Notes under the pieces: model-generated
Database searches by the model: none
Told to the model about the DNA's origin: nothing
What the model saw: the letters and a program-made list of their open reading frames with translations, nothing else
Program-made: the position numbers and the translations under genes
Shown: positions 28,120 through 36,776 of the stretch, in pieces
Layout: each line of letters begins with the position of its first letter
How positions within the stretch are numbered: the first letter of the stretch is position 1
From: Candidatus Poribacteria bacterium
Lineage (GTDB): Bacteria > Poribacteria > WGA-4E > WGA-3G
Reading direction: 5' to 3'
Length of the DNA: 64,000 bases
Assembly (NCBI GenBank): GCA_022825665.1
Contig: JAJDWI010000112.1
Coordinates: 172-64,171 of the forward strand

Positions 28120-29856
28120 ATGGAAAATAAAGTACTCGGTTGGGTGAAAGTTGCCGAGTTAAGCGAAGTGCCTGAGGGACAACCGAAGGCAATTAAAATG
28201 GGTGAAGGACGCAGCATTGCCCTCTTTAACGAAGACGGAAAGATATATGCGACTGATAACCAGTGTCCACACATGGGTTACCCGTTGACGCGAGGCACAA
28301 TCCGAAATGGTATCCTCACATGTGATTGGCATAGGCGCAGCTTTGATTTAGAAGGTGGTGGATGTTTCCACGTCGAATGTGATGATCTACGAACGTTTCC
28401 TGTAGATATCAGAGGAGAGGAAATCTGGATTGAACCCGGTGATATGACATACCGCCGTGCCGAAGAACATAAGAAATTGCTCCGAGAAGGTCTTTTAAGC
28501 GAAGACCGTTGGACAATGTCAAAGGCAATTGCGCTGTTGCTTAAAGGTGGTGTCCCAGAAGAAGAGGTAATGGGAGCGATTCTTGAACACGTCGCACGAC
28601 ACATCCCCAGTGCTCACGGGTCAGAAGGTGGGGAGGATGTCTCCAAACTAATAAATGGACTTAGAGTTGGAAGTCGGTATGAAGGTGAAGATAGACTAAT
28701 CGCAGTCACCACCGCTGCATGTTCTGCTGCAGGAGAAGCACGGCAACGTCTTGAGGTAGTTCCCCTACCGGAACCTGTTACGTGGGAAAAGATAAGCCGT
28801 TGGGTTCGTATCTTCTCTTATGAAGGACAAGCTGGTAGAATTGAACGATGTCTGTTCACTGCTTATCATAAAGGCGATGAAGACAAATTACGTCCGTTGT
28901 TGTTTGAATGTGCTGTGGAACCCAATTTTATTGACAATCCACAAATACCGCTTTATGTGAGTTACCTTTCTGAAGTCGTTGATGAATTCGGATGGGACCG
29001 TACAGCTGACTTGTTCTTCTATCTCGGTGCAGACCTTGTAGGACACCATCCAGCAGACCCAGAACGGTATCGTAGAGACGCTATCAATCTTATGAAAGAG
29101 ATGCTACCATCCATTGAAGGTGCCACATTAGAACGCACCAATAAGTTTGATGAAGATGCATTTGTGGAAGCACTTACCAGCGTCAATCTCCAACGTTCCT
29201 TTGAGGAAGTTCAAACTGTCATAGTTGATGGTGTCAAGTTAGACAGAATTATTACAACACTTGTGTTGCTTGCAGCGGATAGGATGGCGAACACACCTGT
29301 TAATGTAGATGCGGGTTGGTGGAACTTAACAATGGAACTTAACCTTGCGTCTTCTCTACGGAGTGCACAGCAAATAGGTGGTAACCTTGTCGCAGCGAAG
29401 GGTTTATTCCATGTTGCATGGCAAATCTTTGCTGACCGATGGATCAATATCACCTCACGACCTCTGAGTGAACCGTTAAGTGCCGAAAAACTTAATGTCG
29501 CTAATGAGGATGAAGGTGTAAAACTAATTATTGGGACAATCGAGTCGCTCAACGTACAAGATGTGGGACCACAAGTGCTTGGATATCTAAATTCTGGTTA
29601 TTCTGGAGAACGTCTTATAAAAGAGATAGGACATTCAGTGCTATGGGATGATACAGGTAGTGAAGTCCTACCAACTTTACGTACTGTATTTGAAGAATGG
29701 AAACATGCTGACGGACATCCAGCACAACCCCAGTTATTAGTTGGATTAGCACGTTACGTTACAGATATCCGATCCAATACCGATAACAAATCTGCTGCTA
29801 CCACTGCAATGAATTTTGCAGAAGGTAGAACAACGATTGAGGTATTTGAGGAATAA
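28120..29856 (+). CDS. Rieske [2Fe-2S] domain protein with ~470-aa unassigned C-terminal domain (paralogue 1)
   Basis: C49-P-H51 ... C68-D-W-H71 (CPHMGYPLTRGTIRNGILTCDWH). The rest of the protein has no motif I recognise. Confidence 0.8.
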   Translation: MENKVLGWVKVAELSEVPEGQPKAIKMGEGRSIALFNEDGKIYATDNQCPHMGYPLTRGTIRNGILTCDWHRRSFDLEGGGCFHVECDDLRTFPVDIRGEEIWIEPGDMTYRRAEEHKKLLREGLLSEDRWTMSKAIALLLKGGVPEEEVMGAILEHVARHIPSAHGSEGGEDVSKLINGLRVGSRYEGEDRLIAVTTAACSAAGEARQRLEVVPLPEPVTWEKISRWVRIFSYEGQAGRIERCLFTAYHKGDEDKLRPLLFECAVEPNFIDNPQIPLYVSYLSEVVDEFGWDRTADLFFYLGADLVGHHPADPERYRRDAINLMKEMLPSIEGATLERTNKFDEDAFVEALTSVNLQRSFEEVQTVIVDGVKLDRIITTLVLLAADRMANTPVNVDAGWWNLTMELNLASSLRSAQQIGGNLVAAKGLFHVAWQIFADRWINITSRPLSEPLSAEKLNVANEDEGVKLIIGTIESLNVQDVGPQVLGYLNSGYSGERLIKEIGHSVLWDDTGSEVLPTLRTVFEEWKHADGHPAQPQLLVGLARYVTDIRSNTDNKSAATTAMNFAEGRTTIEVFEE

Positions 29857-29862
29857 TATCCG

Positions 29863-31143
29863 ATGCCCCAAAACACTTGGCACTTTCCACGCACAGAATA
29901 TATTGAAGCAGTAAATAAAGGCGATGCGAATCAGGTCAAGTCCTTGTTAGCAGATAGCGCGGAACTTCTTGAGTTCATTGATGCACCTTGGTTCGCCTTT
30001 GATTCTCCTGCTGTTGTGTTTGCCGCTTCAATGGTCAATCGTCCACTTGTGCAAGTTCTACTTGATGCAGGAGCGGATATCAATGCCAAGAGTTCTTGGT
30101 GGGCAGGTGGAACCACAGCACTGCAGCACGCAGCAGGTGCGATGCTCGGATACAACAAGGAATTAGCTGAGTATCTAATTGAACGCGGTGCAATTATTGA
30201 CGCACACGCTGCAGCTGGCTTAGATATGCTTGAAACGCTTGAGGATTTGATTCGTGAAGATCCTAAAGTAGTCAACGCACCGGGAAGCGATAGCATGTCC
30301 CCATTACATTTTGCAGCAACTCCCCGCATTGCTGAATTGCTACTAAAACACGGCGCAGACATAAATCTGCGTGACCGTGACCACTGGGGAACTGCTGCAC
30401 AATGGACAATGCGAAGACGACCTGAAGTATGTCGATACCTACTTGACCAAGGTGCAGAAGCGGATGTTGTCCTTTATTGTGTAATGGGTGATGTAGAACG
30501 CGCAAAGCAAGAGTTTCATAAGAATCCTGAACTCCTTAGGTTAAGAATTAATATGAATGCACCTGAAGGCTACATCATACCTCCGTTGAAACCGTCCAAG
30601 TCTAAAAATGAACAGATTAAGCCTGTTCCCGGTGGACATGTATACGTGTATCAGGTTGGACCGACTATGCCGCTACTTGAGATTGCCCTACAAGCCAAAC
30701 AACCAGAAATCGTTGATCTGCTCATTGATTCAGGTTATGAGATCAACTTACGAGACTGGTATATGTTGGTTGGACAAGGACCTAAACGGTTTGATGCATT
30801 ATTAAAAAGTTTTATTGCTAAAGGTCGTGATATCAATGCACTTCAAAAACATAGACGAGGTATGTGGACACCGCTACATTGGGTTGCACAACGCGGGTTA
30901 ACGAATGGCGTTGCCTGTTTATTGAAGAACGGTGCTGACCCGAATGTAACCGATGACAAAGGACAAACCCCTTTACACTTTATTGCTCAAAAAGGCGTTG
31001 GTAAAAACCAAGCGGAGTTACTGATTGAGCACGGTGCAGATGTCAATACACGTGATGATTCAGGACAGACACCGCTTGATTACGCTAAGAAGGCAAAGCG
31101 GAAAACAGTTGCAGATTTTCTGTCAAAATTGGAATTGCGTTAA
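29863..31143 (+). CDS. ankyrin repeat protein
   Basis: Multiple TPLH.A...G....LL..GAD.N units (e.g. SPLHFAATPRIAELLLKHGADINLRD, TPLHWVAQRG, TPLHFIAQKG, TPLDYA). The ATG is 6 nt after the upstream stop. Confidence 0.9.
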   Translation: MPQNTWHFPRTEYIEAVNKGDANQVKSLLADSAELLEFIDAPWFAFDSPAVVFAASMVNRPLVQVLLDAGADINAKSSWWAGGTTALQHAAGAMLGYNKELAEYLIERGAIIDAHAAAGLDMLETLEDLIREDPKVVNAPGSDSMSPLHFAATPRIAELLLKHGADINLRDRDHWGTAAQWTMRRRPEVCRYLLDQGAEADVVLYCVMGDVERAKQEFHKNPELLRLRINMNAPEGYIIPPLKPSKSKNEQIKPVPGGHVYVYQVGPTMPLLEIALQAKQPEIVDLLIDSGYEINLRDWYMLVGQGPKRFDALLKSFIAKGRDINALQKHRRGMWTPLHWVAQRGLTNGVACLLKNGADPNVTDDKGQTPLHFIAQKGVGKNQAELLIEHGADVNTRDDSGQTPLDYAKKAKRKTVADFLSKLELR

Positions 31144-31342: not shown

Positions 31343-33091
31343 ATGTTATCAGAAAATGGAAATTTCGTTAAAGTCGCTGCCCGCAATGATATAGCAGAAG
31401 GAAAACCAAGGGCAGTTAGAGTTGAAGGGCATAGTATTGCCCTATTTGAACATGAAGGCAATGTTTATGCAACGGATAATCAATGTCCACACATGGGCTA
31501 TCCGCTCATAAGAGGACATGTCAAAAGAGGTGTGTTAGCATGTGACTGGCATGGATGGAGTTATGATATGGAAGGCGGTGGGTGCTTCACCGGTGGTTGT
31601 GATGACCTTGCCACATTTCCTGTTGAAGTCCGAAATGGGGACATCTACATTGATGTTGAAAGTGGTGGAAAAAAACGCGATGACGCACATTTTCTGTTAT
31701 TGAAAGAAGGGCTATTTTCACAAGACAGTTGGACGCTTTCCAAAGCTATTGCCATTATGTTAGCGAAAGGTGTTTCAGAAGACGAAACCTTGGAGATAAT
31801 GGTCAAGCACATGGTGCGGCATATTTCAACCACCCAAGATGCACGAAGCGGTGGTGGACGAATCGCAACACTGATGTACGGAATTAAGGTCGCGCACATG
31901 TATGAGGCTGAAGACAGACTTATTCCGCTGATGATGGCTGCAACGCATGCTGCGGGTAGTCACAATGACCGTCCTGACCGACAACCTTTACCACCACCAG
32001 TTGACTGGGAAAAACTCGAAAATTGGATTAGAGTGTTCACAGCTGATAAAGAGTGGGAAGGTATAGAAAAATGCCTAATCACAGCAAGAGCATTAGGTGG
32101 ACATGAAGATAAATTCATCCCGCTCTTCCTCGATTGTGCATCCCAATGGTTTTTCCTCAGCTACTCCAGAAACCTTATTGACCTTTGTCATCTGGCTGAA
32201 GTGCTTGAGAAATGGGGATGGGAGTTAACCGGAGAATTAGTGTGCAACCTCGGCGCAAAAATACTCGGGCAAGGTAGAGGTAGACCTGGTGAACGTCTCC
32301 GTGAAGCACTCCAAAAACTGGAAGAAATTGAGCATATTTTTGATGATCTGCCACAGGAACAATCACCTGATGTTGACGTCGACTTTGACGAAGATGAATT
32401 ATCCGCAGATCTTGTCAGTGGGGATATAGACACAATATTTGATGCTATCACGAAAGTACTTACAGCAGGCGTTCCCATTGACTCAATTGCTACCACTATG
32501 GTTATGACCGCTGCTGATAGGATGGCAAGAACACCGGTTAACATGAGTCCAGGTTGGTGGGATTTACAAGAAGAGATGGAAATGGCTGCTAACATCAGAA
32601 AACTACTCCGATTTGGCGGCACAAAAATAGCAGCAAAGGCTCTCTACCATTGTGGATGGAGATTTTACTCAAACCGATGGCTAAACATACGACATCAACC
32701 TATTTCAGAGGTGAGAACGACTTCTACCACCAAAGTACTTGATGAAGATATTGCAATTGACGCAATCATTGATGGGATTGAATCTGTCCGCATCCAAGAA
32801 ATCGGACGACGTACCCGAGAATATCTGAACTCAGGCTGCTCTGCTGAACGGTTGATGCGTGAAATGGGACTATGTATTCTCAAGGATGATAGAGGAGACA
32901 ACCTCCTCAGCAGCATCTATATTGTATCTAATGAATGGAAAAGGTGCGAGTCACATCCTGCCAGAAATCAACTGATCGTTGGGTTAGCACGATGGGCAAC
33001 GGATATTCGTAGAAATACTGGAAACGACTCCGCTGTGCAAACGGCACACCGTTTTGCAAAAGGCGAGACCGCTACAGAACTTTATGAATAA
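31343..33091 (+). CDS. Rieske [2Fe-2S] domain protein with ~470-aa unassigned C-terminal domain (paralogue 2)
   Basis: CPHMGYPLIRGHVKRGVLACDWH. Collinear with 28120-29856 along its full length. Confidence 0.8.
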   Translation: MLSENGNFVKVAARNDIAEGKPRAVRVEGHSIALFEHEGNVYATDNQCPHMGYPLIRGHVKRGVLACDWHGWSYDMEGGGCFTGGCDDLATFPVEVRNGDIYIDVESGGKKRDDAHFLLLKEGLFSQDSWTLSKAIAIMLAKGVSEDETLEIMVKHMVRHISTTQDARSGGGRIATLMYGIKVAHMYEAEDRLIPLMMAATHAAGSHNDRPDRQPLPPPVDWEKLENWIRVFTADKEWEGIEKCLITARALGGHEDKFIPLFLDCASQWFFLSYSRNLIDLCHLAEVLEKWGWELTGELVCNLGAKILGQGRGRPGERLREALQKLEEIEHIFDDLPQEQSPDVDVDFDEDELSADLVSGDIDTIFDAITKVLTAGVPIDSIATTMVMTAADRMARTPVNMSPGWWDLQEEMEMAANIRKLLRFGGTKIAAKALYHCGWRFYSNRWLNIRHQPISEVRTTSTTKVLDEDIAIDAIIDGIESVRIQEIGRRTREYLNSGCSAERLMREMGLCILKDDRGDNLLSSIYIVSNEWKRCESHPARNQLIVGLARWATDIRRNTGNDSAVQTAHRFAKGETATELYE

Positions 33092-33102
33092 CACAATTGC
33101 AT

Positions 33103-33150
33103 GAAATGTTGTGCGGGGTCTCTGTGTCCCGCACAACATTTCTTTAGATT
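33103..33150 (+). terminator. strong stem-loop downstream of the Rieske paralogue 2 stop
   Basis: Perfect 15-bp stem: gaaatgttgtgcggg (33103-33117) pairs with cccgcacaacatttc (33128-33142), with a 10-nt loop. It is followed by a short ttt. Confidence 0.6.
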
Positions 33151-33182
33151 TATAGTAGACAAAGTTCCATCCTCAGACCTAT

Positions 33183-33332
33183 CCATAAGCGTCAATTTAA
33201 GGAGGAAATGCGTTTGTAGTTACACTTTTCAATGTGCCTCTTACATTATCATTATCGTAGGGGCGAGGTCTCCTCGCCCGTATTCTCATATACAGTCCTG
33301 TAGGTCGGAGAGCAAAGCGACCTACGACATGG
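33183..33332. repeat. left half of the composite repeat (ccataagcgtcaattta, A-variant, B, hairpin module)
   Basis: Collinear with 23669-23815 and 61671-61820. Confidence 0.75.
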
Positions 33333-33370
33333 ATACTAAGCCCGGACAAATGCTATACGGGGAGTATCTT

Positions 33371-34408
33371 ATGAAGATTAATTTATTCTTAATGAAAAAT
33401 ATCCTTCTATCCATCCTATTATGCATATTATGTATGTCAGCACATAGTGCATCATTGGAGTCCGCATTTCAACTTGGCGAAAAGCAGAACCCTCGACTTG
33501 ACAGATTGCTACCTGATGTTGCGCGGTATATGGCTTTTAATAAGAATAGCACAAAGTTGATTGCAGAAGAGATGGGTGGAACGATAGTAGAATGGGATTT
33601 TATATCGCGCAAAAGACGGGAGTTAGGTCACATTCAAGCAAAGCGATTGTTTGTATATTCCAATTCCACCAGTCAACTCTTAATTCAGAAAGAAGATGAT
33701 GTCACTATTCTCAATCTCATAGATGGCAATGAAACACAGATTACAAAGGGACAATATGAAAGTGGGAGTCTTTCAGCTGACAGCACCTTAGCTGTGTTGT
33801 CGAAAGGTGACAAAGAATTCGGGTTTTGGCAAATCACTAAAGACAGTTCAAAGCCAGTGAAGACTTTTCAGACAACTTTACCTGTCAGGAACGGTCTTAC
33901 ACTATCCGATAACGGAAAGTTTATTGCGACTGCTGAAGGAACTTACCGTGATGGTGAAGGACATCGTACAATTATAGAAATTTGGAATGTAAATGATGAA
34001 AAGCAACCTATACGAGTCATAAACACGGGTGAAATTCTTGGTGTGTAGAACCTTGTATTTTCACACGATGGGACAATGCTCGCGGTTGACACACAACTCA
34101 ATGCAAAATCTGGAATTCGCGTATGGGATATAAAGACAGGTGCACATCTACTCAACAAATCCGGTTTTGAGGCATATTGGACACGTGCCCTTACTTTCGC
34201 TCCTAACAATAAATCAAATCCTATAGAATACCTTTTCTCAGGCGACGAGAAAGGTAATTTACGAATATGGAAAATCCCCAGTGGTGAATCTACAATTCAT
34301 GTAAACTATCCAACCGGTATCCAAACGTTAGCCTTCTCACCCAACGGTAAATATTTGGCAGTAGCACTGTGGGACACCACAATTCAAATTTTGAGGTGGA
34401 CAAGATGA
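33371..34408 (+). pseudogene. secreted WD40/beta-propeller repeat protein interrupted by an in-frame TAG (34046-34048)
   Basis: ATG 33371 with RBS ggag, and signal-like MKINLFLMKNILLSILLCILCMSAHS. ORFs 33101-34048 and 34076-34408 share a frame. The WD-like units continue across the stop (...GEILGV*NLVFSHDGTMLAV...IRVWD...LRIWK...LAFSPNGKYLAV). Confidence 0.65.
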
Positions 34409-34911
34409 GTAATAATAATGAATCTTATACTGACGAAAAAGGACGCACCCGGTGGCATATTAACGATGAAATAGCGTTAAGATTTATGGAACTCCATGCC
34501 TTCTTGATTATAGCAGATTATCCCGAAGACCATGCCTCGCGCTATCCACGTTTGGCACATTCCATTTCTCGCTTTCCAGAATCAGTTGCTGATCTCGTGG
34601 AGCAAGATCGGCTAATTGAAGAAATCGGTGGGGTAGGGGATATTGTCGCAACTATCATCACCGAATATCTTCAAACTGGCACCTGTTCAAAAATGGACGA
34701 ATATGCAGGTGACATACCACGATCAATAACTGAACTCGTTCCTGTTCCAGGATTGGGTGGGAAAACTATTAAGCGGCTGTATGAAGATATTGGGATAGAT
34801 AGTCTTGCATCCCTCCGTTCAGCAATTGATGAAGGAAAACTCAAAGGTTTCAAAGGCATTGGAAAGAAAACTCTTGAAAAAATAGAGGAATACCTTGATA
34901 CAAATTTATAA
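34405..34911 (+). CDS. PolX N-terminal-like (8-kDa lyase-like + helix-hairpin-helix) protein, no polymerase domain, paralogue A
   Basis: The ATG overlaps the WD40 stop (atga). GGVGDIVATIITEYLQTG and VPGLGGKTIKRLYEDIGIDSL...GFKGIGKKTLEKI resemble the first ~160 aa of family X polymerases. Confidence 0.65.
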   Translation: MSNNNESYTDEKGRTRWHINDEIALRFMELHAFLIIADYPEDHASRYPRLAHSISRFPESVADLVEQDRLIEEIGGVGDIVATIITEYLQTGTCSKMDEYAGDIPRSITELVPVPGLGGKTIKRLYEDIGIDSLASLRSAIDEGKLKGFKGIGKKTLEKIEEYLDTNL

Positions 34912-34973
34912 TCTGAAGCAATCCTTGATACTCTTCATTTTGAAGAATAAATTAAGGTAAGGATGATGTCAAA

Positions 34974-35456
34974 ATGGAACAAAAAGAACACACAAACAGA
35001 CTAACCAACGATGAAATCGCCCAAAAACTGATGGAACTGCATACAATTCTGATTGTCGCTGATTATCCGGAAGACCACGCAGCACGTTACCCCCGTCTTG
35101 CATATACAATTTCTCGTATGGAAGAATCAGTATCGGACTTAGTTGCTCGAGGAAGATTACAAGACGAGATCCCCGGTGTCGGAGATATAGTCTCAACAAT
35201 CATCACTGAATATGTAGAAACCGGAACATGCTCAAAATTACAAGAATACGCAAGCGATGTCCCGCAGACAATTGTTGAACTCATACCTATTCCCGGACTC
35301 GGTCCAAAGACAATTAAACTTCTATATCAGGAGATAGGTATTGATAGTCTGCAATCACTTCAAAACGCAATTAATGAAGATAAACTAAAAGGGATCAAAG
35401 GTGTCGGAAAGAAAACAATAGAAAAATTTGAAGAATACCTTAATGAAAATTTGTAA
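34974..35456 (+). CDS. PolX N-terminal-like HhH protein, paralogue B
   Basis: 160 aa, about two-thirds identical by eye to 34405-34911 and collinear with it. Confidence 0.65.
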   Translation: MEQKEHTNRLTNDEIAQKLMELHTILIVADYPEDHAARYPRLAYTISRMEESVSDLVARGRLQDEIPGVGDIVSTIITEYVETGTCSKLQEYASDVPQTIVELIPIPGLGPKTIKLLYQEIGIDSLQSLQNAINEDKLKGIKGVGKKTIEKFEEYLNENL

Positions 35457-35483
35457 TTGATATTTTTACATACAGGTGAAATT

Positions 35484-35969
35484 ATGGCAAGTTCACGAGA
35501 TACAGGCGAAATGGTGGATGGCAAAAAGCATGGGTATTGGGTAACTTACTACGCCACTGGTGTAAAGCGAAGTGAAGGCAACTACATTCACGGCAAAAAA
35601 GATGGTCCCTGGATCAATTATCATAAAAATGGAAACAAATCAGGCGAAGCCTCCTTCCGTGATGGAAAATACGAAGGTCCTTGTATCACATATCATGAAA
35701 ACGGTAACCTTAGATCCAGTGGTTCCTATCCTAAACATGAGGGTAAGTCTTATGATGGGAAAAAGGAGGGACCATTTTACAATTACGAAGAAGACGGAGA
35801 AACGGTGTGGCTAATCATAACTTATAAAAAAGGTGGTAGTCGTGCAAAACCCGACGAGTATCCCCTTGGAACATGTGAGGTATGTGGTGAGGTAAGACGT
35901 TTAAATTGGACTGATAGCTGCCCAAAATGTGGTGCAGAAATTGATGAGTCAGAAGTTATTCCCAATTAA
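35484..35969 (+). CDS. MORN-repeat-variant (YwqK-like) protein with C-terminal CxxC...CxxC zinc ribbon, paralogue A
   Basis: GKKHGYW.TYY..G.K.SEGNYIHGKKDGPW repeats, then CEVCG...CPKCG. ATG 35484 with RBS aggtga is preferred over the track start at 35457. Confidence 0.7.
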   Translation: MASSRDTGEMVDGKKHGYWVTYYATGVKRSEGNYIHGKKDGPWINYHKNGNKSGEASFRDGKYEGPCITYHENGNLRSSGSYPKHEGKSYDGKKEGPFYNYEEDGETVWLIITYKKGGSRAKPDEYPLGTCEVCGEVRRLNWTDSCPKCGAEIDESEVIPN

Positions 35970-35981
35970 CAGATTTATCTT

Positions 35982-36117
35982 ATACCATTTCTAAATAATA
36001 ACTTTTCATTAACAAAGAACGCGTTTGTAGTCGCGCAATTCATTGTGCCTCTTACACTAACGTAGGAGCGAGGTCGCCTCGCTCGTGCAAACAAGATAAT
36101 TCAGGTTAATTTGGTAT
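35982..36117 (+). repeat. MITE variant between the two MORN paralogues
   Basis: ataccatttctaaataataacttttcattaacaaa + module A + module B + gtgcaaacaagataattcaggttaatttggtat. The right end also occurs at 61190-61225. Confidence 0.75.
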
Positions 36118-36131
36118 TATGAGGTGAAATT

Positions 36132-36596
36132 ATGGCAAGTGCAAGAGATACAGGTGAAATGGTCGATGGTAAAAAACATGGGTACTGGATTACCTATTTT
36201 GCCAACGGATTAAAACGTAGCGAAGGAAACTTCATCCACGGCAAAAAAGACGGAAAATGGATCCTCTATCACAAGAATGGGAATATATCCAGCGTAGCAT
36301 ATTTCCGGGATAATAAGTACGAGGGCGATTATATATGCTATCATGAAAATGGGAATCGCAAATGGGGTGGTCCCTACAAGAAACATGATGGCACATCTTC
36401 CGACGGGAGAAAAGAGGGAGTTTGGCACTGTTGGGAAGAGGACGGCGAGACGATATGGCGTATTATCACCTATAAAAAAGGCGGTGCCCGCGCAAAACCA
36501 GACGAACATCCTTTCGGTGAATGCCACGGTTGCGGCGAAGGTAGACGCTCAACGTGGACAGATAATTGCCCAAGGTGTGGCGAACCACTTAACTAA
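36132..36596 (+). CDS. MORN-repeat-variant protein with C-terminal zinc ribbon, paralogue B
   Basis: 154 aa, collinear with 35484-35969 including the RBS context (aggtgaaattatggcaagt). Ends with CHGCG...CPRCG. Confidence 0.7.
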   Translation: MASARDTGEMVDGKKHGYWITYFANGLKRSEGNFIHGKKDGKWILYHKNGNISSVAYFRDNKYEGDYICYHENGNRKWGGPYKKHDGTSSDGRKEGVWHCWEEDGETIWRIITYKKGGARAKPDEHPFGECHGCGEGRRSTWTDNCPRCGEPLN

Positions 36597-36776
36597 TACC
36601 ATTTCTAAATAATAACTTCTCATTTACAAAAAACGCGTTTGTAGTCGCGCAATTCACGCGCCTCTTACATTCTCGTAGGGGTGAGGTCGCCTCGCCCGCA
36701 TTCTCACATATAGTCCTGTAGGTCGAAACAAACTTGCAACCTACAACATGCTTGTCTAAACCAAGATTTTCAGGAT
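36596..36776 (+). repeat. MITE left half plus A, B, hairpin and D modules
   Basis: It starts on the last base of the TAA stop codon (36594-36596) of the upstream gene. Collinear with 23690-23841. Confidence 0.75.

Follow-up and report, generated by a model that had tools for sequence, protein, structure and literature searches.

A conserved poribacterial gene block of WD40, polymerase-less PolX-type helix-hairpin-helix and MORN/zinc-ribbon genes

The stretch analysed here, called the window throughout, is 64,000 nucleotides of Candidatus Poribacteria bacterium DNA (GenBank assembly GCA_022825665.1, contig JAJDWI010000112.1, positions 172 to 64,171, forward strand). Between positions 33371 and 36596 it carries five plus-strand reading frames: a WD40 gene, two genes for helix-hairpin-helix (HhH) proteins, A and A′, and two for MORN/zinc-ribbon proteins, B and B′. 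The block is real and undescribed; it is conserved across sponge-associated Poribacteria and is built wholly from known domain types, with no new chemistry. Its genes are:

33371..34408, plus strand: WD40 beta-propeller gene with a Sec-type signal peptide and an in-frame TAG (Pfam, orthologue comparison)
34405..34911, plus strand: HhH-A, 168 aa, 8-kDa and fingers parts of family X DNA polymerase (PolX), three HhH hairpins, SYxDxKGRxRW motif
34974..35456, plus strand: HhH-A′, 160 aa, younger paralogue of A without the N-terminal motif
35484..35969, plus strand: MORN/zinc-ribbon B, 161 aa, MORN beta-hairpin array and C-terminal CxxC-x11-CxxC
36132..36596, plus strand: MORN/zinc-ribbon B′, 154 aa, ancient paralogue of B

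The start of HhH-A overlaps the WD40 stop (ATGA at 34405-34408), and gaps of 62, 27 and 162 nt separate the later genes. A sequence-only reading of the window had already given these gene coordinates and the overlap at 34405, all of which are confirmed. It had also described five packed genes; four are intact, but the WD40 gene is interrupted by a nonsense codon (TAG at 34046-34048) that this reading missed.

The HhH proteins, 67% identical to each other, correspond to the front end of PolX. Both carry the Pfam domains HHH_8 and HHH_5 (HHH_8 at E 1e-10 to 3e-11) and match positions 51-145 of the 571-position PolX model NF006375 (NCBIfam, E ~1e-21). A profile of the family matches residues 29-148 of T. 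thermophilus PolX (3au2, E 3e-23) and residues 4-150 of Pol beta (E 2e-10). The AlphaFold2 (AF2) model has a predicted local distance difference test score (pLDDT) of 88.9, and Foldseek aligns it to 3au2 with a query TM-score (TMq) of 0.75 and 31% identity over 147 columns. Matches to PolX stop at PolX position ~148-150, and the proteins end at 160-168 aa with no palm bearing catalytic aspartates and no thumb. The C-terminal PHP exonuclease/AP-endonuclease domain was not found in either protein (Pfam, NCBIfam), and the intergenic gaps, given their size, are too small for palm, thumb or PHP remnants. The earlier description of these proteins as only the first ~160 aa of a family X polymerase thus stands on both profile and structure matches.

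Fold and helix order are the same as in bacterial and archaeal PolX (T. thermophilus 3au2, D. radiodurans 2w9m, B. subtilis), and like these enzymes the HhH proteins have two universal HhH motifs and a third of the GFGxK type. The hairpin residues G68, G70, G108, G110, G143, G145 and K147 are invariant in the family, and in the fingers PGLGxKT and the third-hairpin G-x-G-x-K are likewise invariant. The third motif (G143-x-G145-x-K147) is the counterpart of GFGxK in bacterial and archaeal PolX; in the B. subtilis enzyme, Gly130, Gly132 and Lys134 of that motif influence DNA binding (PMC3479172). Unlike PolX, the HhH proteins end after the fingers, form a stable stand-alone family and add the SYxDxKGRxRW motif, which is present in A and in non-poribacterial members and has been lost from A′.

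With the 8-kDa 5′-deoxyribose phosphate (dRP) lyase domain of mammalian Pol beta they share homologous helices, HhH1 and Tyr39. The lysines of the lyase pocket differ. In an alignment of 18 HhH members with human Pol beta 1-150 (sequence validated), the position of the Schiff-base Lys72 is I/T/Y/M/L/F in all 18, and Lys68, Lys35 and Lys60 are also replaced in 18/18, leaving only Y39 of the pocket. Given these replacements, dRP-lyase chemistry is not expected of the HhH proteins.

The family is wide. More than 200 clusters of stand-alone HhH proteins of 150-210 aa were found. An exhaustive profile search returned 20 representatives (50%-identity clusters) at E <1e-30, mostly 150-210 aa and with the N-terminal motif; weaker than about E 1e-27, the matches run together with those to full-length PolX (~570 aa). 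All A′ homologues have lengths of 150-186 aa, and wherever one is named it comes from Candidatus Poribacteria. Other named members of the family come from Deltaproteobacteria, Binatia, Latescibacteria, Granulosicoccus and Gammaproteobacteria metagenome-assembled genomes, the stand-alone family being present in several bacterial phyla. Phage and plasmid collections gave weak matches to PolX N-terminal regions only, with no family members among them. The >200 clusters, together with ratios of nonsynonymous to synonymous substitution (dN/dS) of 0.04-0.11, mean that the HhH proteins are not fragments of a recently disrupted polX, a fate that the sequence-only reading had held open. To judge from these sequence comparisons, they are a genuine stand-alone family derived from bacterial PolX. 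Databases label its members ‘HhH domain-containing’ or, wrongly, ‘DNA polymerase family 10’.

The MORN/zinc-ribbon proteins B and B′ share 69% identity. Against Pfam MORN_2, B reaches 38.1 bits (cut-off 29.6) and B′ 28.4 bits, just under the cut-off. AF2 predicts an antiparallel array of beta-hairpins (pLDDT >90 over residues 10-70, 88 over 71-80) that matches MORN1, SET7/9, MORN4 and RSPH1 (Foldseek E 3e-5 to 1e-3). Over the predicted ribbon the model is of low confidence (pLDDT 53-71). The four cysteines C131, C134, C146 and C149 (B′ numbering) are invariant in 18 sequences; the terminal pair of CxxC motifs noted earlier is present, with a spacing of x11 and not x13-14. Searches found ~54 clusters, the named ones from Poribacteria. 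Shorter matches lack the ribbon and bear the Joint Genome Institute (JGI) name ‘antitoxin component YwqK’.

The MORN array is thus common to B/B′ and to MORN1, MORN4, RSPH1, the SET7/9 N-domain and bacterial MORN_2/YwqK; unlike all of these, B and B′ fuse to it a C-terminal CxxC-x11-CxxC predicted zinc ribbon. Most Fusobacterium MORN2 proteins have a signal peptide, whereas none is seen on the MORN/zinc-ribbon proteins, nor on the HhH proteins. Unlike YwqK, B and B′ have no YwqJ-type toxin beside them; no adjacent LXG, Rhs, deaminase or other toxin gene was found in the window block or related loci.

The WD40 gene has WD40 and propeller matches in Pfam, yet the window copy does not form a complete multi-blade propeller frame. 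Two open reading frames (ORFs), 33101-34048 and 34076-34408, share one frame across it, and the TAG is codon 226. Intact orthologues are 334-341 aa long and have Trp at the site, reading ...LGVWN..., which indicates that TGG became TAG in the window. The window copy is likely a young pseudogene. Its signal peptide is of Sec type (MKINLF...CMSAHS/A), and orthologues carry signal peptides too. Recoding of TAG (pyrrolysine or readthrough) was rejected: TAG is the ordinary stop of 5 other long window ORFs, and no tRNA gene was found in the window.

The two closest relatives, with 93-94% DNA identity to the window, have lost the gene. L005 has a clean deletion of window 33182-34351 (L005 5718-5723), and in L056 window 33152-34192 is deleted (L056 5656-5718). 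With the window TAG these make three independent WD40 lesions, the deletions having different end points. WD40 is also absent from L031, L037, L041-43, L052 and L053 (tblastn map). Genes flanking the lesioned WD40 stay under strong purifying selection; HhH and MORN have outlasted the repeated loss or breakage of WD40 and are therefore not dependent on that gene. A 387-aa WD40-HhH fusion (P0365) was considered as a Rosetta stone and rejected: it lies on a 2x-coverage long-read contig on which the Ank (ankyrin-repeat) gene is also split, and its most likely origin is an artefactual indel in the ATGA overlap.

Conservation was followed in a scan of one genome per GTDB species, which gave 77 loci, all from Poribacteria. 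The genes do occur together beyond this genome, in 77 of 77 Poribacteria loci, and in nearly all of these the same-strand order is Rieske(paralogue)-Ank-Rieske-WD40-HhH-MORN/zinc ribbon (tblastn map). A WD40 orthologue ends <180 nt upstream of 55 of the 62 A-type HhH genes, and the stop/start overlap recurs in L001 (57% identity) and L003. Full-length MORN/zinc-ribbon genes lie within 2 kb of 66/93 HhH genes and within 5 kb of 83/93, the median HhH-to-MORN gap being 130 nt. Even at 57-60% protein identity the genes keep their order and strand. Against L005, L044, L018 and L008, dN/dS is 0.03-0.11 for A, A′, B and B′, all four of which are under strong purifying selection.

The history of the duplicates can be read from their clades. 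The 115 HhH sequences fall into two, 70 of A type and 45 of A′ type, and A′ is confined to one Poribacteria subclade. Clades of the 113 MORN sequences comprise 53 of B type and 59 of B′ type; distant loci with one A-type HhH have both MORN types, which marks B and B′ as ancient paralogues, and the B′ type is also present in the most distant Poribacteria locus, L001. The commonest orders are A-B-B′ (13 loci), A-A′-B-B′ (10) and A-B-A′-B′ (7). Several sister genomes have a truncated MORN gene between A and A′, such as the 78-aa fragment in L003. The simplest history is an ancestral order W-A-B...B′ (W, the WD40 gene), with A′ produced by segmental duplication of the A-B pair: A-B-B′ gave A-B-A′-B-B′, and one B was then lost. 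The window order most likely arose from A-B-A′-B-B′ through loss of the first B. The identities of about two-thirds noted earlier are confirmed, but to call A A′ B B′ tandem diverged duplicates is misleading: B and B′ are ancient and the order is most likely secondary.

The number of MORN copies ranges between 1 and 4, and fragments and TnpB insertions occur as well. IS605-family OrfB/TnpB genes adjoin extra MORN/zinc-ribbon copies (L003 8492-9604, L001 10942-12156), and these elements may drive the variation. Other genes also stand between HhH and MORN. Several Poribacteria genomes have a three-gene cassette there (L073 8767-11369), whose products of 347, 237 and 277 aa are, judged by eye only, possible methyltransferase-like, haem-oxygenase-like and GNAT-like proteins. 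In L001 (6837-7640) a 267-aa gene fuses an MntA-like nucleotidyltransferase (NTase) to HEPN, and matches MntA/HepT-type toxin-antitoxin models and the PADLOC candidates PDC-S09 and PDC-M05A. The NTase-HEPN gene was rejected as the ‘missing palm’ of the HhH protein: it has that position in one locus (L001) only and is hence an insertion.

Eight contexts of the HhH family outside named Poribacteria were inspected; L086, L088 and similar loci may belong to deep branches of Poribacteria or to different phyla. They are as follows:

L082: SDR - HhH - DUF3750
L085: SDR - HhH - DUF3750
L083: beta-lactamase - HhH, with a giant AAA-WD40 protein nearby
L086: Ank - WD40 orthologue (45% identity, signal peptide) - HhH - SDR
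L087: esterase - HhH - VF530
L088: HhH in an Ank-rich neighbourhood
L089: HhH at the contig end with no upstream sequence, then an opposite-strand TANGO2-domain gene; no WD40, Ank or MORN
L090: SDR and aldo-keto reductase upstream of HhH on the opposite strand; no WD40, Ank or MORN

The deepest recurring partners of HhH are WD40 and Ank, and the MORN/zinc-ribbon association is a feature of Poribacteria. In the Deltaproteobacteria-type contigs the DUF3750 gene after HhH overlaps it in L082 (7510-8298) and lies 59 nt downstream in L085 (6572-7282); SDR-HhH-DUF3750 may be a different conserved partnership of the same family. An Ank-like N-terminus of P0144 was unconfirmed by Pfam at E <= 0.01 and is not used.

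The surroundings of the window block contain the following neighbours and boundary elements:

28141..29850, plus strand: Rieske-domain protein, opening the conserved Rieske-Ank-Rieske context; ~43% identity to the 582-aa Rieske paralogue (tblastn map)
29863..31143, plus strand: ankyrin-repeat protein, 426 aa, conserved upstream neighbour (Pfam Ank_2 E 3e-42, synteny)
31343..33091, plus strand: 582-aa protein with N-terminal Rieske [2Fe-2S], conserved neighbour (Pfam, synteny)
33103..33142, plus strand: terminator-like hairpin, 17-bp stem and T run, just after the 582-aa Rieske gene
33207..33330, plus strand: copy of a dispersed three-hairpin intergenic repeat (REP/MITE-like)
36018..36112, plus strand: truncated copy of the dispersed intergenic repeat, between B and B′
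36630..36735, plus strand: copy of the dispersed intergenic repeat, 3′ of B′

The two Rieske paralogues, ~580 aa each, lie on both sides of the Ank gene; in each the N-terminal Rieske [2Fe-2S] is followed by ~470 residues with no family match, and the arrangement is kept across Poribacteria. An Ank gene is directly 5′ of WD40-HhH in L001, L080 and L086. The 582-aa Rieske gene is probably a separate transcript from the WD40-HhH-MORN unit, whose likely 5′ boundary is the hairpin at 33103..33142 and whose likely 3′ boundary is the repeat copy at 36630..36735.

The dispersed repeat, three copies of which bracket the cluster, is ~110-130 nt long, intergenic and folded into three hairpins, with folding z-scores of -2.3 to -3.2. 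It resembles repetitive extragenic palindromes or miniature inverted-repeat transposable elements (REP/MITE-like). Nine copies occur in the window, all on the plus strand, with cores at 2252, 4410, 23735, 25420, 33256, 36061, 36674, 61168 and 61738; the core is GGGGCGAGGTCnCCTCGCCC, then CCTGTAGGTCG...CGACCTACG. An Rfam search of the whole window gave no match, the repeat included. The 3′ flanks of B and B′, repeat included, are 93% identical, against 73% for the coding regions.

No described counterpart was found among known systems. PADLOC-DB 2.0 gave no match for six window proteins of the cluster, and no defence, toxin or enzymatic domain was found in the block. The published census of eukaryote-like repeat expansions in sponge symbionts (Kamke et al. 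2014, PMC3909097) covers the same phylum, and its Ank and WD40 classes are found in the neighbourhood of the block, whose WD40 carries a signal peptide; being a domain census, it does not contain this block, the PolX-derived HhH family or the MORN/zinc-ribbon family. Literature on PF14716/HHH_8, on Poribacteria with MORN, and on MORN with YwqK and zinc ribbon yielded no description of the block or of the stand-alone HhH family, in agreement with the earlier statement that no described system has this combination.

The explanation favoured here, tentatively and at somewhat under an even chance, is that the block, operon-like and specific to one phylum (Candidatus Poribacteria), encodes non-catalytic binding modules, with HhH proteins on the DNA backbone and MORN/zinc-ribbon proteins as adaptors. 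In its oldest core the gene of an exported WD40 propeller would be coupled in translation to that of a small cytoplasmic HhH protein, the latter being the putative DNA-binding front end (8-kDa and fingers) of a bacterial family X polymerase, and one to several MORN-repeat/zinc-ribbon genes would follow this core. With their three conserved GxG hairpins the HhH proteins would make non-specific contacts to the sugar-phosphate backbone of DNA, presumably with no polymerase or dRP-lyase chemistry; the MORN/zinc-ribbon proteins would be adaptor partners with a protein- or lipid-binding beta-sheet and a small zinc knuckle. Several points weigh against this explanation. A physical link between HhH and MORN is something we infer, as is the function of the block. 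A and A′ are acidic (net -10, pI 4.8), an unusual property in a DNA binder that stands alone, although in full-length PolX-like library proteins, too, the first 150 residues range from acidic to basic. WD40 is repeatedly lost while HhH and MORN persist, and a signal peptide on WD40, with none on HhH or MORN, means that WD40 may work in another compartment than the HhH/MORN proteins. The interval from HhH to MORN tolerates insertions (the 3-kb three-gene cassette of L073, the NTase-HEPN gene of L001, TnpB elements). MORN/zinc-ribbon genes adjoin the HhH family in 0/8 of the contexts outside named Poribacteria, where the pairing proposed from the window accordingly does not extend.

Some of these points are equally those of a serious though rather unlikely alternative, in which the genes are neighbours by descent only: synteny inherited within one phylum, small proteins acting independently, and no ‘system’ at all. 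All 77 syntenic loci come from one phylum; elsewhere the HhH family adjoins unrelated genes (SDR with DUF3750, VF530, beta-lactamase, TANGO2); WD40 is gone from many lineages; HhH and MORN can be parted by inserts of up to 3.8 kb; and two genomes have their A and A′ modules at a distance of roughly 10-20 kb from each other (L048/L025, L051/L023). What simple inheritance explains poorly is the tightness of the arrangement, in which order and strand hold down to 57-60% protein identity, the WD40/HhH stop/start overlap is conserved, the HhH-to-MORN gap has a median of only 130 nt, and the HhH-MORN pair appears to have been duplicated as a unit. At the opposite extreme, HhH and MORN/zinc-ribbon proteins could form a dedicated complex, anciently with Ank and the exported WD40, serving as a so far unrecognised non-catalytic sensor or scaffold for DNA lesions or DNA ends, or as a host-directed DNA-binding effector set specific to sponge-symbiont Poribacteria. 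This is improbable. Sensing of DNA ends, one of the functions suggested from the sequence at the outset, is weakened by the replacement of most of the Pol beta 5′-phosphate/lyase pocket (K72, K68, K35, K60), of which Y39 is kept.

Delivery of the Ank, WD40, MORN and HhH proteins into the sponge host, for example against phagocytosis or, for HhH, against host DNA, is unlikely. Poribacteria live as symbionts of sponges and abound in Ank, WD40 and further eukaryote-like repeat proteins, some with signal peptides (PMC3909097), the WD40 orthologues themselves have signal peptides, Ank genes recur beside the HhH family, and Fusobacterium MORN2 proteins are suspected, if untested, host-interaction factors (bioRxiv 10.1101/534297). 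Yet the HhH module is closest to bacterial PolX and has the third HhH specific to bacterial and archaeal PolX, and it and the MORN/zinc-ribbon proteins lack a signal peptide, two facts that tell against the eukaryote-like effectors suggested earlier. Moreover, WD40, the sole secreted candidate, is the gene being lost, and the block has no secretion-system genes. Very improbable is an array of immunity genes, in which B and B′ would be tandem YwqK-type immunity proteins or antitoxins against a polymorphic toxin and the HhH genes unrelated passengers or regulators. MORN_2 is indeed the YwqK-type repeat, whose name JGI gives to shorter homologues, and the variation of MORN copies from 1 to 4, with fragments and TnpB insertions, would suit such an array. 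These shorter matches, however, have no C-terminal zinc ribbon, no toxin gene of the kinds sought lies in the window block or related loci, PADLOC finds nothing, and B and B′ are stable orthologous lineages phylum-wide (dN/dS 0.03-0.11), unlike fast-turnover immunity islands.

Among the explanations weighed, a block of non-catalytic binding modules thus remains the one favoured. If the HhH proteins are truly a functional stand-alone DNA-binding module split from PolX, an unannotated family is thereby defined. In Poribacteria their fixed tie to WD40, Ank and MORN/zinc-ribbon genes gives a testable handle on the large, functionally obscure ‘eukaryote-like’ repeat repertoire of sponge symbionts, and the result guards against mis-annotation, whether as truncated polymerases, as toxin-antitoxin modules or as genes of defence.

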